Shown: positions 18,950 to 25,603 of the stretch, in pieces
Layout of the letters: each line of letters begins with the position of its first letter
Position numbering within the stretch: the stretch's first letter is position 1
Assembly (NCBI GenBank): GCA_016840095.1
Contig: JAEOSZ010000114.1
Coordinates: 1 to 58,712 of the forward strand
DNA: 58,712 bases
Direction of reading: 5' to 3'
Source of the DNA: Candidatus Heimdallarchaeota archaeon
Lineage (GTDB): Archaea; Asgardarchaeota; Heimdallarchaeia; Heimdallarchaeales; Heimdallarchaeaceae
Notes under the pieces: model-generated
What the model was told of the DNA's origin: nothing
Databases searched by the model: none
What the model saw: the letters and a program-made list of their open reading frames with translations, nothing else
Program-made: the position numbers and the translations under genes

Positions 18950-19681
18950 TCAGCTTAGTTTTAAGAATTTCTTCAACCAATCTGGAAAAATGTATCCCAA
19001 ATACCCACAAAAAACTCCTACTCCTGCAGATATCCAAGCTGCATAATAGAATGGTGAGTAGCCTTCAGGCATGATTAAATCCAGTGCAAATAGAACAAAT
19101 ACTGAAGACACAAAAACACCATAAAATCCAATCAAAACAAATCCTACTTTTGGCATTGCTTGATCACTTTTTGCTGCTTCTCTAAAAGCAAAGAATGCTA
19201 ATAACCCAAATGTAATCAAAGATAGAGCTGCATGATAGATCACGTATGGTTGTGTCTCAGAATAAACTTCATCTTGGAAACGATTTATTACAATTAAACA
19301 TCCTACTGTAATTCCATTTGCTATCCCTGAAAGTGCTACAGAAATTCCTCCTAGATTAAGAAATACCTCATCTAGAAATGCAAAAAGAAACACATTTGCA
19401 ATTGCTGTTACTGTATATGCAATAACTATCCATCCTCCAGCATAATCAATTAGAGGTGAAGGTGATGGATGATAGAAGTTTATCCATTTTCCGAGAGCAC
19501 TTGCTCCGACTCCTAGTGATAAAAAAAGAAAACTTAACGATAAATAGAGGGTGGGTTTTCTCTTTCTTTGAAAGAACTTTTGTATTGTTCTTACAGTTAG
19601 AATTATCATACAAATAGCAATAATTGTTTCAATTATTACTGCTAGTATAGGTATCTCGTTACTCATTGTTTGCCAAACCAT
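18950..19681 (-). CDS. Seven-transmembrane protein of unknown function
   Basis: Seven hydrophobic helices, ending GYIFPDWLKK; a GGTGA ribosome site overlaps the stop codon of the upstream longin gene. Confidence 0.8.
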   Translation of the reverse strand: MVWQTMSNEIPILAVIIETIIAICMIILTVRTIQKFFQRKRKPTLYLSLSFLFLSLGVGASALGKWINFYHPSPSPLIDYAGGWIVIAYTVTAIANVFLFAFLDEVFLNLGGISVALSGIANGITVGCLIVINRFQDEVYSETQPYVIYHAALSLITFGLLAFFAFREAAKSDQAMPKVGFVLIGFYGVFVSSVFVLFALDLIMPEGYSPFYYAAWISAGVGVFCGYLGYIFPDWLKKFLKLS

Positions 19682-19686
19682 AATTT

Positions 19687-20133
19687 TCACCAAAATGAAT
19701 CTTTAATCTTCTTTAGCGCTTGACTATCCTTAACTGAATCTTCCCACTTAGCCATAAGATCTTCAATGATGTTTGCCATTTGAATTTCTTGCTCAAAACT
19801 TAGTATTCCAACTTCTGGAAGTTCAATAAAATTGAAAGTTATTTGTGTAATTAATTCAGCTATCATATCATTGATTGATTCTCTTTCAAAATTATCCTTT
19901 ATGTCTTTTACAAGTGCTACAGCAAAGTCGCTAGTTGCTTCAACATAAACTTCATGTGTTTGAGTAGTTAGATAGTTTGCTTCTCCAGCATCAATTTCCT
20001 GCAATACAGTTCTGATTGCTGAAATTACTCCAGAAAATAAAGTTACTTTAGTTACATCATCTTCTTCAGGTGTTCTTTCTTTGAAATATATGGGAACACC
20101 GGTCCTTGAGATAATGTAAACAGCTTGAATCAT
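19687..20133 (-). CDS. Stand-alone longin-domain protein
   Basis: MIQAVYIISRTGVPIY...LFSGVISAI...three beta strands...helix: longin (sigma-adaptin/TRAPP-like) pattern. Confidence 0.75.
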   Translation of the reverse strand: MIQAVYIISRTGVPIYFKERTPEEDDVTKVTLFSGVISAIRTVLQEIDAGEANYLTTQTHEVYVEATSDFAVALVKDIKDNFERESINDMIAELITQITFNFIELPEVGILSFEQEIQMANIIEDLMAKWEDSVKDSQALKKIKDSFW

Positions 20134-20493: not shown

Positions 20494-21837
20494 ATGAGGA
20501 GCGAACAGATTGTATGCAACAGCTGTGGAAGTTTACATATAGCAACTTCTTTGAGATGTTCGAAGTGTAAAAAACTCATATCTATTCCTCCTATATCTGG
20601 ACCTGAAAAATCCAAAATCCAAGTAAATTCTATGTGGTCTTTCATAGATTTTCTCCCAACATACTCTCATCCGGTTTCACTGCTAGAAGGAAACACTCCT
20701 TTGTTGAAGGTAAATAACATTGAACGTCTTAAGAATCTTAGTTTGAAATTGGAGTTCAGAAATCCAACAGGTTCGTTTAGAGATAGAGCTAGTTCATTGG
20801 TTGTATCAGATGTAGTCCATAGAGAAATTACTAAGGTAATAGGTGCAAGTACGGGTTCTTTTAACATCAGTTTATCTGCATATGCTGCAAAAGCTGGAAT
20901 ACAATCTTATAGTGTCATTCCCCATAATCTAGAACTTAGTAAAATTGAACAAATGAAGATATATGGTAGTGAGATAATTGAAAGAGGAAGTACTGTTGAA
21001 GAATCAATTTTAGAAGCAGAGCAACTCAGTGTTGAATTGAATGCATATTTAGCTACACCAGAAAACAATATTTTAGCTATTGAAGGTCAGAAAACCTTAG
21101 GTTTAGAATTGGCTTTGCAGAAAAGAAATTTCGATGCACTAATTGTACCTCGAGGTTCAGGTTCGCTTATTTACTCTGTTTATAGAGGTTTTGAGGATGC
21201 AATTGCATCAGGTTGGATCAGTAAAATCCCCCGGATTTATGCTATATCTCTTGAAAAATCAAAGAGTGCATCACTTGCTGAATCACTTGAAATTGATCAA
21301 CCATTTCTTCTTGAAGAAGTTAGAGAAACTATTAATTTAACCAAAGGACGAGAAATTGAAATCGGTGCTCAAAAGATGATAGATGAAGCACTACATCTAT
21401 CAAAGAGAGAAGGTTTGTTTATAGAACCAGCTTCAGCTTCTGTTCTTGTTGCAGCTACTGAGTTAGTGGAACAAGAAGAGATTGAAACACAGAATACAAT
21501 CGCCATTCTTTCTGGTACAGGTTTCAATGCACTCAATATATATGCCTCTCAAATGAGAGACCAGAAAAAAGTAGTCTGGGGTTTATCTGAAGGATCAACA
21601 ACTAAATTTGAAATACTTAATCTAATTTCTGAAGGTAAGGCAACTTATGGTATTTCTATCTGGGAATCACTTGGAAAAGCAAAATCCAAGCAATCTATCT
21701 ATCAACATCTCAATGAACTTCAAGATAAAGGATTGATTGTTCTAACTGATAAAGAAACTAAAATTAAAGAGTTCAAAGTAACTAAGAAAGGTTTTGAAAC
21801 AATAGAAAAAATGAAAGATCTAATTGATTTTATCTAG
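20494..21837 (+). CDS. Threonine-synthase-like (PLP fold II) domain lacking the PLP lysine, fused to C-terminal winged HTH; probable transcription regulator
   Basis: CxxC/CxxC N-terminus; EGNTPL; NPTGSFRDR (canonical SFKDR); EGQKT; EPASA; C-terminal FEILNLISEG..YG..IW...QSIYQHLNELQDKGLI. Confidence 0.85.
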   Translation: MRSEQIVCNSCGSLHIATSLRCSKCKKLISIPPISGPEKSKIQVNSMWSFIDFLPTYSHPVSLLEGNTPLLKVNNIERLKNLSLKLEFRNPTGSFRDRASSLVVSDVVHREITKVIGASTGSFNISLSAYAAKAGIQSYSVIPHNLELSKIEQMKIYGSEIIERGSTVEESILEAEQLSVELNAYLATPENNILAIEGQKTLGLELALQKRNFDALIVPRGSGSLIYSVYRGFEDAIASGWISKIPRIYAISLEKSKSASLAESLEIDQPFLLEEVRETINLTKGREIEIGAQKMIDEALHLSKREGLFIEPASASVLVAATELVEQEEIETQNTIAILSGTGFNALNIYASQMRDQKKVVWGLSEGSTTKFEILNLISEGKATYGISIWESLGKAKSKQSIYQHLNELQDKGLIVLTDKETKIKEFKVTKKGFETIEKMKDLIDFI

Positions 21838-21903: not shown

Positions 21904-22239
21904 TTAATTTGTACAATTTCCATCGTGTAATCTTTCTTGAATCATTTCTTGGATCATTTCTTGTAATCTGTCCTGAATCATTTCTTGAATTCTGTCCTGA
22001 ATTCTTTCTTGAAACTGATCACAGTCACAATCACATTCATTTTCACAATCACAATCACATTCACTTAAGCGATTTTGAAGTTGATATCTTTCTTGAATTT
22101 GTTCTTTATCAACATCGCCAAATCTGAAGAATGAGAAATATTCATTATAATTCAGGGCTTGATTTGCTGAAGTAATCTGGACTGTAAAAGTTAGTAGAAC
22201 AGCTAAACTAATGAATAAAGATAATCTTTTTACTTTCAT
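21904..22239 (-). CDS. Small secreted protein with Cys-acidic and QE/QD tetrad repeats
   Basis: Signal peptide MKVKRLSLFISLAVLLTFTVQITSA; ECDCDCENECDCDCD; (Q-E/D-R/M-I/L)n; ends HDGNCTN. Confidence 0.7.
   Translation of the reverse strand: MKVKRLSLFISLAVLLTFTVQITSANQALNYNEYFSFFRFGDVDKEQIQERYQLQNRLSECDCDCENECDCDCDQFQERIQDRIQEMIQDRLQEMIQEMIQERLHDGNCTN
21928..22063. repeat. Coding tandem repeats (12-bp period and 6-bp period)
   Basis: Imperfect TCTTGAATCATT-like units followed by ATCACA units. Confidence 0.7.
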
Positions 22240-22363
22240 GTGTTTTACCAAGGAAATGTCATAATTAATTTATTAATACATTTTTCTTTAGAAAACTAAA
22301 GTATCGATGATTCAGTATCAATCTAAATTAGTTCATCTGCACACCAAAACAGTTATATTTATT

Positions 22364-22385
22364 TATTCAAGTTACAACTTGAATA
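22364..22385. promoter_or_regulatory. Perfect 22-bp palindromic operator upstream of the ECF operon
   Basis: TATTCAAGTT-AC-AACTTGAATA, immediately downstream of the TATA-like TTATATTT (22353-22360). Confidence 0.75.
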
Positions 22386-22398
22386 TTTGTTAGGTGTG

Positions 22399-23199
22399 AT
22401 GATTGTGGAGAAGGAAGTAGGTTTAGGAGAAGTCTTCTTGAGAGAAGTTACTTCGATAAGAAATTTAGCATTAATTGTGACTTTTACTGGATTAGTATTT
22501 CTTTCAACATCGATATTTTTTATAGCAATCCCTACCTCTAGCGGTTTTTTTAACATTGGAGAGGTGTTTATTTATCTTGCTGCGCTAATTGGAGGACCTA
22601 TAACTGGAGCAATTAGTGGAGGATTAGGAGCTTCAATGGCTGATCTAGCTCTTGGATATGGATTCTTTGCACCTGGAACAGCTGTAATAAAATTAGTTGA
22701 AGGATTTGTAGTAGGATTGATTTTTCACTATGGTCGTAAATTACCAAGTCAGATAAAAAATTTCTCCATGGGAGTCTCCAGTGGTGTATTGGTTAGCATT
22801 TCAGCCTTCTATGTTAAAGAGGATTTTGTATTCGGTTTTTCATTCTATTCTACTAAGACATTTGAACTAACTGTACCCGGTTATGTGTTTCTAATAATAG
22901 CTTTATTCTTGAGCATATTAATTTTAATAGTTATTACATTCTTAAAAGAGAAAGGAGAAATGGCTCTAGCTTGCATTATTGGTGGAGTATTTATGGTGCT
23001 TGGGTACTTTATCTATGAGAGATTTATCTTAGGCTATCCAACAGGAGCTGCAGCATCAGAAATACCTTTCAATATAGCTCAAGTAGTACTAAGCGCTTCA
23101 ATAGTGATCCCAATAGTATCCTATCTAAATGATCTTGGAATTTTAAGACGTTCTCAAGAAAAGGAAATTGAAGAGGAAATAGAAATCCCAGCTAAATAA
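22399..23199 (+). CDS. ECF transporter S component (HmpT/PdxU2-like) with extra hydrophobic insertion
   Basis: GFFNIGEVFIYLAALIGGP..GGLGASMADLALGY..FAPGT..IK..EG; C-terminal EIPFNIAQ. Confidence 0.85.
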   Translation: MIVEKEVGLGEVFLREVTSIRNLALIVTFTGLVFLSTSIFFIAIPTSSGFFNIGEVFIYLAALIGGPITGAISGGLGASMADLALGYGFFAPGTAVIKLVEGFVVGLIFHYGRKLPSQIKNFSMGVSSGVLVSISAFYVKEDFVFGFSFYSTKTFELTVPGYVFLIIALFLSILILIVITFLKEKGEMALACIIGGVFMVLGYFIYERFILGYPTGAAASEIPFNIAQVVLSASIVIPIVSYLNDLGILRRSQEKEIEEEIEIPAK

Positions 23200-23228: not shown

Positions 23229-24866
23229 ATGCTAAAGATAGAGAATCTAAATGTTAAATATCCAACTAATAAAGAAAATGCTCTAAATAATATAAGTTTA
23301 GAAGCTTCAAAAGGAGAATTTATTGTTGTAGCAGGTTCAAGTGGAAGTGGAAAAAGTACTTTAGCTCAAGTGTTAATGACTCTAATTCCAAATTTTGTTA
23401 ATGCAAAAATTACTGGAGATATCTATTTTGATAATCAACCTTTAAACAAAATCTCAAGAAAAGAACTCTCTAGGATATTAGGATATGTTCCGCAATATCC
23501 AAGTGATTTTACAACTTCATTATTAGTAGAAGAGGAAATAGTTTTTCTTTTGGAAAATCTTGGTATATCTCCTGAACAAATAGAATCTAGACTGACTACA
23601 GTTTTATCTGAATTAGAAATTAAAAAACTAAGGGGAAGAGTAATACCCGAGTTAAGTTCTGGAGAATTACAAAGAGTATTTCTTGCAGCTGCTTTAGCAT
23701 ATACACCACCGATAATTATATTGGATGAACCTATTGCAAGAATCGATCCAAAAACAGAAGTCAAACTTGTTAATATTCTCAGAAGTATTGCAGATAAAGG
23801 TAATCTTGTGATAGCATTTGAACATAGATTAGATTATATTGTTCAAAAGGCAGATCGCTTAATTGTCCTTGAGAAAGGAACAATAGTAAGTGATGGACTA
23901 CCCTTGGAATCGATTAATTTACTTAAGGATATTGACCCTCCTGAGCTATCTCGTTTAGAAATTGAAGAAGATGACCTTCTGTTAAATCTTGAAAAGAAGA
24001 TTGAATCATCAAAGATTACAGAAAAACTTGAACGAATAATTGAACAAGAAAATACTCGGAAATCAAGCAAATCAGGCAAGGAACCAATAATCTCTTTAGA
24101 AAAACTCTGCTTCAAATACAATAATAAGACTAATTTGATATTGGATAATGTTGACATCAACTTCCATGAAGGAGAATCTATTGGGTTAATGGGAATCAAC
24201 GGTTCAGGCAAGTCAACTCTGCTAAAGCTCATTTTAGGCATAATTAAAGCTAATAAGGGAGAAGTGATTGTAGATAAATCTAAAGTTAAAAGGATTAGAG
24301 CTGGAAAAAAACAAAGTGTCTTTGTTCCAGAAAATGCAAAACTATTTCTTGTTGGACCAACACCTTTGATAGATTTAGAGAGACTAACTAATGATAAAGA
24401 TGAAGCAAATAAAATCTATAAGAAACTAGAATTGAGAAGATTAATGAAAAGAAAACTCTATCATCTAAGTGAAGGTGAAAGAAGACTCTATGCAATTGTT
24501 AACTCATTTCATTTGCAAAAGAAAATAGTTCTACTAGATGAGCCTACTATTGCTTTAGATAAAAAAGGTAGAGAGATTCTTGAACAGCTAATAGTGCAAG
24601 CAAAAGAGGAAAAGAAAACAATTATTCTTGCCACAAATGATCCAAGAATAGTTACTACTTTTGATAGGTTAATAGTGTTAGAAAATGGTAAAATGTGTTT
24701 AGAAGGAACACCTAGAGAGGTATTGTATAAACTTGAAAAGGAAACAAATCTAATCCCTAATAGAACAGTAAGATTATTACAAAAACTCGAAGAAGAGAGA
24801 GGAATTACGATTCCCAAAATAATCAATCCTGAAGAATTTAACCAACTATTGATGGAGGAAGCATAA
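23229..24866 (+). CDS. ECF transporter fused double ATPase (A-A')
   Basis: Two Walker A motifs (GSSGSGKS, GINGSGKS), LSSGE/LSEGE signatures and two LDEP motifs. Confidence 0.9.
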   Translation: MLKIENLNVKYPTNKENALNNISLEASKGEFIVVAGSSGSGKSTLAQVLMTLIPNFVNAKITGDIYFDNQPLNKISRKELSRILGYVPQYPSDFTTSLLVEEEIVFLLENLGISPEQIESRLTTVLSELEIKKLRGRVIPELSSGELQRVFLAAALAYTPPIIILDEPIARIDPKTEVKLVNILRSIADKGNLVIAFEHRLDYIVQKADRLIVLEKGTIVSDGLPLESINLLKDIDPPELSRLEIEEDDLLLNLEKKIESSKITEKLERIIEQENTRKSSKSGKEPIISLEKLCFKYNNKTNLILDNVDINFHEGESIGLMGINGSGKSTLLKLILGIIKANKGEVIVDKSKVKRIRAGKKQSVFVPENAKLFLVGPTPLIDLERLTNDKDEANKIYKKLELRRLMKRKLYHLSEGERRLYAIVNSFHLQKKIVLLDEPTIALDKKGREILEQLIVQAKEEKKTIILATNDPRIVTTFDRLIVLENGKMCLEGTPREVLYKLEKETNLIPNRTVRLLQKLEEERGITIPKIINPEEFNQLLMEEA

Positions 24867-25603
24867 TGTCATTCATGCTTAAGAGAATTTATGATGGGTT
24901 TCTGTATAAGCCAGATAAATTGAATATTCATCCATTAATTGGTATTCTAATCATCTCGATTCAGTTTGGATTTATGATATTGAATCGGAATTGGATTCTT
25001 GCTCTTCTCCTGATTTTAATTGTAATTGAAGTAATTGTTTTTAGAAACATAAGAGGTGCTTTAAGCATTCTTTGGGCTCTTTCTCCAATTATTATTATAG
25101 TTGGAGGATTATCTTTTGCTTTTGGAGGTTGGGTTATTTTGTATCGAGTATTAATGAGGATATTAATAGGTGGTTTGGGATTTTCTCTGCTTTTTACTTT
25201 GGTAAATCCTTCAGATTTAACTCGAAGCTTTGAGAAACTTAGAATTCCTACAAAAATAGCTCTTATACCTTCTCTTGCTTTAACAATGATTCCTAGAATA
25301 GCAAAAGATGCAGAAGATACATTTTCAACACTCAAAATTAGAGGAGAAATTAAAGGATTTTTTTTAAGATGGTTACCTAAAGTTTTAGCAATTTTTATTG
25401 CATCAATCATCTATAGATCGGAATTTCTAGCACAATCTCTCTATTTCAAGGGATTAGGAATTCAGAAAAGAACTCACTACAAGAAAATTCCAATAAGATG
25501 GATTGATATTTTTCGCATTTTCTTATGGTTAAGTTTCATTATAGGCTTTATATTGATTGAAAGGTTCAATATTCTAGAATATTTTCCAGCTTTCTTTATT
25601 TAG
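24866..25603 (+). CDS. ecfT: ECF transporter T component
   Basis: Membrane protein with coupling-helix motifs (LKIRG; LYFKG); coupled to the ATPase gene by a TAATG overlap. Confidence 0.85.
   Translation: MSFMLKRIYDGFLYKPDKLNIHPLIGILIISIQFGFMILNRNWILALLLILIVIEVIVFRNIRGALSILWALSPIIIIVGGLSFAFGGWVILYRVLMRILIGGLGFSLLFTLVNPSDLTRSFEKLRIPTKIALIPSLALTMIPRIAKDAEDTFSTLKIRGEIKGFFLRWLPKVLAIFIASIIYRSEFLAQSLYFKGLGIQKRTHYKKIPIRWIDIFRIFLWLSFIIGFILIERFNILEYFPAFFI

Follow-up and report, generated by a model that had tools for sequence, protein, structure and literature searches.

The gene at positions 20494-21837 of the window (by which we mean the whole stretch analysed here, 58,712 nucleotides of a contig from a Candidatus Heimdallarchaeota archaeon) encodes a protein that has the fold of threonine synthase, but in which the Schiff-base lysine position reads arginine and a winged helix-turn-helix (wHTH) is fused to the C-terminus. 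The question raised by this locus is whether such a protein is still an enzyme, the product of a decaying gene, or a transcriptional regulator and, if the last, which genes it controls and what it senses. We consider it likely that the protein, referred to below as the regulator, acts as a homodimer to repress vitamin B6 supply, with a B6 phosphate, bound non-covalently, as its co-repressor. Its parts are as follows:

20494-21837, + strand: regulator gene, 447 aa, with a zinc ribbon, a putative sensor of threonine-synthase fold and a PadR-like wHTH; PRK05638-like family, Arg clade
20515-20568, + strand: N-terminal zinc ribbon, CxxC...CxxC (C8, C11, C22, C25), common to archaeal threonine synthases
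20674-21516, + strand: PALP domain (fold-type II PLP enzyme; Pfam), residues 61-341, with the predicted homodimer interface
20779-20781, + strand: codon AGA for Arg96 at the Schiff-base lysine position, aligned to Lys61 of the T. thermophilus enzyme
21148-21168, + strand: cofactor-phosphate loop, P219-L225, with G221 and G223 retained family-wide
21589-21831, + strand: PadR-like wHTH, residues about 366-446, under strong purifying selection

The PALP domain was matched by Pfam with an E-value of 1e-50, and AlphaFold2 predicted a fold-type II domain (pLDDT 84), threonine synthases being the best Foldseek matches of the model (E 4e-22). In the same model, a low-confidence linker (residues 343-364) is followed by a C-terminal H-H-H-wing-H element. 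When the whole protein was compared with PadR (PF03551), residues 374-438 scored 22.6 bits (E 1e-4; gathering score 27), and the wHTH alone scored 26.6 bits (E 6e-6), slightly below the gathering score. Moreover, PadR was matched by 16/16 family wHTHs tested (best E 3e-14), and a profile built from these 16 reached E about 1e-8 against PadR/RosR proteins of solved structure. The wHTH fusion described in the original prediction was thus upheld as a predicted domain, PadR-like by its relatives and by the AlphaFold2 element. The best NCBIfam model was PRK05638 (NF004170), labelled 'threonine synthase', which aligned with residues 6-440 (model positions 2-441; E 4e-81). The score of 272.8 bits is below the curated cut-off of 421 and, as judged from sequence, the regulator is of the same clade as the PRK05638 members but outside the narrow equivalog. 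Its named close relatives are Heimdallarchaeia.

The loss of the lysine was examined by alignment with threonine synthase 1uim of T. thermophilus, in which Arg96 of the regulator falls on Lys61, in agreement with what had been read from the codon at 20779-20781. Arg occupied this position in 96/96 nearest homologs, as the original prediction had proposed to check, and it was encoded by AGA, CGA, AGG and CGT. The reading frames were intact, and dN/dS was 0.07-0.19 in the PALP fold and 0.03-0.08 in the wHTH, the latter being, by these sequence comparisons, the most constrained part of the protein. A private mutation, a sequencing error or a decaying pseudogene would account for a single unusual codon, but Arg96 is neither error nor decay, because Arg is universal among the nearest homologs, is written with four codons and lies in a gene with dN/dS far below 1; we regard the chance of such an artefact as negligible.

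In a wider set made up of the nearest homologs and 50%-identity representatives, which gives an unbiased count of Lys, the position was occupied among 199 wHTH-fused proteins by Arg in 116, Ile in 30, Leu in 21, Val in 9, Thr in 5 and Met in 5; Lys was present in 70 of the 77 unfused proteins. (In our comparison of active-site conservation the value of 100% Lys for threonine synthases is so by construction.) A family profile matched up to 143/251 Asgard genomes (a few of these matches being unfused enzymes), 27/31 Thermococcaceae and many Thermoproteota, and the nearest ESM Atlas cluster had 1978 members, 99% of them archaeal and bearing only an automatic name. The regulator therefore belongs to a widespread archaeal family, found in Asgard archaea, Thermococcaceae and Thermoproteota, in which the lysine is mostly replaced by Arg, Ile, Leu or Val, and the conversion from enzyme to regulator is an old, family-wide event that is not local to this gene. 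The Thermococcaceae members score above the PRK05638 cut-off. The label 'threonine synthase' for PRK05638 is very probably wrong, because the lysine and substrate residues are lost, a wHTH is fused, and Arg was read in 26/27 Thermococcaceae regulator loci (one partial).

Trees of the family were built without the Schiff-base alignment position itself. An Arg clade containing the regulator and the Thermococcus member was recovered with SH-aLRT 100, and a separate aliphatic clade was also found. Monophyly of the fused family received SH-aLRT 76-88 with IQ-TREE and was left without resolution by FastTree, so that a single origin of the fusion is neither demonstrated nor rejected. Some fused proteins do carry Lys, namely one Lokiarchaeia subclade and two Thermococcaceae genomes. 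Because these proteins nest among Arg-bearing relatives inside the Arg clade (their grouping with true synthases was rejected, p-AU 0.006), the lysine was probably regained or repeatedly lost within the family, as far as the trees can tell. With few lineages carrying Lys, loss is typical but not required. The Lys-bearing fused loci L198, L200, L204-L206, L049, L300 and L352:3046-3444 were seen to retain the importer and a palindrome (both described below), and such members can serve as natural controls when covalent and non-covalent sensing are compared.

Pocket positions were taken from the alignment with 1uim, and residues were assigned the roles that their counterparts have in the Thermus enzyme. 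Most cofactor contacts are retained in the regulator (F95, G221, G223, E311 and S/T340), and the substrate-phosphate positions Thr88, Asn154 and Arg160 of T. thermophilus are altered to F123, T188 and A195, respectively. The ASTGSFNIS and VPRGSGSL motifs are present as had been described. In the substrate-carboxylate loop, S119 and T120 are retained at 93% and 98% in the near clade, and at 44% and 22% in the wider family. At the position that contacts O3' of PLP, which is Asn87 in the Thermus enzyme, the near clade has Ser and the wider family has Asn or Asp; this Ser would count against the B6-phosphate model, as it bears on affinity or on the choice of vitamer. About 18 residues after position 255 are absent from the near clade. 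Arg, Ile, Leu and Val can neither form an aldimine nor take an acid-base role. The residue pattern suggests a domain that binds cofactor and is non-catalytic. A two-copy model of the regulator scored 0.88 (best control 0.15), with contact through the enzyme domain, and its runs had at least 62% of contacts in common and pLDDT of at least 84. The mark taken to indicate a dimer was reached by 20/30 solved pairs and by 1/23 single chains; the score may reflect likeness to solved threonine-synthase dimers.

The genes that lie beside the regulator indicate what it may control. The following features were found downstream of it:

21904-22251, - strand: 115-aa ORF that separates the regulator from the importer and is conserved within the genus
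22345-22360, + strand: promoter elements of the importer, a BRE-like A-run and a TATA-like box, placed by alignment with related promoters (a sigma-70 promoter scan is unsuited to archaea)
22364-22385, unstranded: candidate operator, 22-bp palindrome TATTCAAG-N6-CTTGAATA, between TATA box and ribosome-binding site
22387-23199, + strand: ECF S component (PF07155), PdxU2/HmpT-like, likely start ATG 22399; predicted B6 importer and regulated target
23229-24866, + strand: ECF fused A-A' ATPase, following the S component
24866-25603, + strand: ECF T component, a weak CbiQ-like match

PF07155 includes PdxU and PdxU2 (PMC9997740), and pyridoxamine is the preferred substrate of HmpT/PdxU2 (PMC4860826). 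The only solved relative found for the S component was chain S of 4HZU, the HmpT/PdxU2 protein, which is distant (E 2e-7). Of the HmpT pocket residues E41, H84, Q87, Y120, N140 and Q143, 4/6 are identical in the S component; these four are almost invariant among its relatives, and H84 is replaced by K and Q87 by E in 40/40 of them. From this distant relative, we infer that the S component is a B6 importer. At locus L166 (G084:C242:5131-6586), a PF07155 S gene immediately precedes pdxS in the same orientation, an arrangement that adds to the case for a B6 substrate. S gene and regulator are neighbours in Heimdall, Loki, Asgardarchaeum and Desulfurococcales loci; counted over diverse loci, the two adjoin in 14/20 from Asgard archaea and 15/23 from Thermoproteota. 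In other genomes the neighbour of the regulator is pdxST. Among Asgard genomes S gene and pdxS are close to complementary, a PF07155 S being present in 194/213 genomes without pdxS vs 10/38 with it (kin are not independent in these counts); in the genus of the regulator, the four pdxS genomes fall among the five that lack the S gene. In the source genome (89% complete), pdxS was not found, nor was a PdxK-type kinase above cut-off. In T. chitonophagus (L105:5414-10131), the regulator is unlinked to its predicted targets and stands among housekeeping genes, after those for proteasome beta and aCPSF1 and before one for an amino-acid-kinase-family protein.

The palindrome lies a few bases downstream of the BRE/TATA-like element and upstream of the ribosome-binding site. 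It is the sole match in the window and the top site of the 3.4-Mb genome (33.0 vs 20.7), and a matrix made from Thermococcaceae pdxS sites alone also ranked it first in the source genome. Some of the other weak matches in that genome lay in coding regions, and a possible second target at G000 C85 (score 17.9) was rejected, as it was seen in 2/19 genus genomes. No autoregulation site was found upstream of the regulator in the source genome (best score, -11.8). The palindrome recurs before S genes across Asgard archaea and, in another Asgard family, in the divergent spacer between pdxST and the regulator. The exact pattern occurred in 35/251 genomes, and 27/30 of the loci fetched precede an S gene or pdxS.

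Site and regulator were also compared across target genes and phyla. With a matrix derived from Asgard S-gene sites alone, a score above 7 was obtained before pdxS in 11/19 Asgard genomes with a family match and in 0/11 without one. Eight of the 19 promoters had no site; two of these genomes held only unfused matches, in two others pdxS was inside an operon, and one promoter had a variant palindrome. The same matrix gave scores of at least 5 before pdxS in 14/21 Thermococcaceae vs 0/329 control windows; four further promoters had a degenerate palindrome core, and the three promoters without a site belonged to G295, G278 and G287, genomes without a fused regulator. When a matrix from the Thermococcaceae pdxS sites was used, 26/27 regulator genomes had a site scoring at least 9.7 in front of the S gene, which is unlinked there (control maximum, 6.9 among 326), and the regulator-less G295 and G278 had none. 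In G279, an apparent exception, the family member is cut by the contig end. The regulator-less genomes may represent few independent losses. Operator variants follow the subclades of the regulator. The Loki Lys-bearing and aliphatic-clade loci have variants with the same spacing, a relaxed palindrome (at least 15/16 positions; a pattern written after such sites had been seen) being found in 16/40 S promoters vs 1/261 control promoters. Many Thermoproteota importer promoters match the palindrome only weakly. Two complete Heimdallarchaeum-type genomes (L139:1481-1522 and L140:1481-1522) have a double site between the importer and a divergent panB; control of panB through this double site may be incidental.

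Other conserved genes were seen near the regulator and in its genus. The 115-aa ORF has a signal-peptide-like start, a Cys/Asp-rich stretch and Q/E-rich four-residue repeats, and it yielded no family match; it adjoins the regulator in many genus loci and is divergent from the operator-bearing promoter. A gene for a Roadblock/longin-like small protein (19687-20133, - strand) adjoins one for a multi-pass membrane protein (18950-19693, - strand), the pair being divergent from the regulator in a linkage confined to the genus. Elsewhere (L385:1040-1975, - strand), a 311-aa protein encoded upstream of a PTPS-family gene is 71-93% identical across 23/24 genus genomes, which is unusual conservation for a protein with no Pfam match.

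In the model that we propose, the regulator would act as a one-component transcription factor and repress the genes of vitamin B6 supply. The threonine-synthase fold would have lost catalysis, would dimerise, and would retain the cofactor pocket, in which a B6 vitamer carrying a phosphate (PLP, or PMP/PNP) would be held with no Schiff base. The homodimer would use its pair of wHTH domains to bind the 22-bp palindrome, which closely follows the TATA box and overlies the probable start of transcription. When B6 is sufficient, the bound regulator would block initiation at the ECF importer operon in the source genome and likewise at pdxST in relatives that synthesise B6. That the regulator binds the palindrome is very likely, and that it represses the target genes is held only a little less firmly. 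A B6 phosphate as the co-repressor is probable, because the targets supply B6, and the placing of the site across the start of transcription of such genes is consistent with co-repression by the end product. The original prediction of an enzyme fold turned regulator is supported by the conserved candidate operator and regulon. Of the two ligands then offered, a B6 vitamer is now favoured and a phospho-amino acid disfavoured, for two reasons: pdxST and an importer of the PdxU2/HmpT type are the targets, and the subsite for the substrate phosphate is lost.

Regulator, operator and targets could be as proposed and the effector a different one: an external aldimine of PLP with an amino acid, a vitamer that lacks the phosphate, or a phospho-amino acid. 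Alternatively, the ligand could release the protein from DNA. A lysine-less fold-type II pocket could trap an external aldimine, as with Lys mutants, and the near clade both retains S119/T120 of the carboxylate loop and has Ser rather than Asn at the O3' contact. We nevertheless regard these options as unlikely, given that the carboxylate loop varies in the wider family, the substrate-phosphate subsite is lost, and the targets are genes of B6 synthesis and uptake and include no threonine genes; for the reversed polarity, the position of the site over the transcription start argues in favour of co-repression. Threonine and O-phosphohomoserine were likewise disfavoured as ligands, the recurrent neighbours including no threonine genes and the subsite being lost. 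The source genome contains a homoserine dehydrogenase and no ThrB above cut-off.

Another factor might read the palindrome, with the regulator linked to B6 genes for some other reason, for example as a B6 storage or chaperone protein. This would be compatible with losses of the regulator in few events and with the weak sites of some Thermoproteota. It becomes very unlikely once it is considered that site presence tracks the regulator gene in two phyla, at unlinked targets too, that site variants follow the regulator's subclades, and that the wHTH is its most constrained part. Even less probable is that the protein still works as an enzyme, be it threonine synthase or another, and moonlights in DNA binding as RbkR, which is bifunctional, does. 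Its database label and the Lys of some members speak for such an enzyme, which would apply at most to that Lys-bearing minority; against it stand the chemistry of Arg, Ile, Leu and Val, the loss of the R160 and T88 equivalents, and the presence of two Lys-bearing paralogs of the regulator in the source genome. The repressor of B6 supply that responds to a B6 phosphate thus remains our preferred reading.

Among known systems, the closest parallel is bacterial PdxR of the MocR group, a one-component factor in which a PLP-enzyme fold is joined to a wHTH and which controls pdxST and pdxU-type transport (PMC5320631). In MocR sensors, an N-terminal GntR wHTH is joined to a fold-type I domain in which PLP forms a Schiff base with Lys309 (PMC10450172); the apo-form of MocR/PdxR activates pdxST, its sites are mostly direct or mixed repeats, and the group is reported to be absent from Archaea (PMC5320631). 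In contrast, the regulator is archaeal, of fold-type II, comes from a family in which the Lys is mostly lost, and has a single palindrome placed for repression. None of the MocR hallmarks (fold-type I domain, N-terminal GntR wHTH, PLP-binding Lys) was found in it; no GntR-type wHTH was among the families listed for it, its wHTH being C-terminal and PadR-like. By comparative genomics only, it shares the pdxST/pdxU-type regulon of PdxR. The proposed analogy to MocR/GabR on a different PLP fold therefore holds as a likeness and not as membership. From threonine synthase ThrC, with which it shares the fold, the Zn-ribbon and the predicted dimer interface, the regulator differs in the loss of the Schiff-base Lys (motif NPTGSFKDR) and of the substrate-phosphate residues, and in the fused wHTH. 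PadR, LmrR and RosR resemble it in the DNA-binding domain only, whereas its predicted dimer and ligand site are in the enzyme-fold domain. RbkR, in which an enzyme domain is likewise joined to one that binds DNA, also governs an archaeal vitamin regulon of synthesis and uptake genes (PMC5397151). However, RbkR has a riboflavin kinase fold that is still an active kinase, serves a different vitamin, and has its DNA-binding domain at the N-terminus. ThiR is another archaeal enzyme-derived vitamin regulator of this kind, with a ThiN enzyme fold and an N-terminal DNA-binding domain.

In the open-access literature, we found no description of an archaeal B6 regulator or of a function for this family. 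The PALP+wHTH architecture itself is already visible in databases, and the surveys of archaeal HTH fusions by Aravind & Koonin in 1999 and Aravind et al. in 2005 may list an archaeal threonine synthase-HTH architecture. The current 'threonine synthase' label can inflate predictions of threonine prototrophy, and its correction matters for that reason. Few substrates have been verified for the ECF S-component class (PMC9997740), and the operator adds to the evidence that an S component widespread in archaea has B6 as its substrate. The Lys, Arg and aliphatic series offers natural material for comparing covalent with non-covalent B6 sensing, and the model is directly testable in the genetically tractable Thermococcus. 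Taken together, it is probable that the family is the vitamin B6 regulator of Archaea, a fold-type II protein that gave up its lysine and reads B6 phosphates non-covalently. If this is right, the archaeal gap left by the absence of MocR would be filled with a named protein, operator and targets, PLP-fold sensors would have arisen twice from different folds, and the family would stand as an independent mirror image of PdxR in Bacteria, with a single operator that can be recognised from phylum to phylum.
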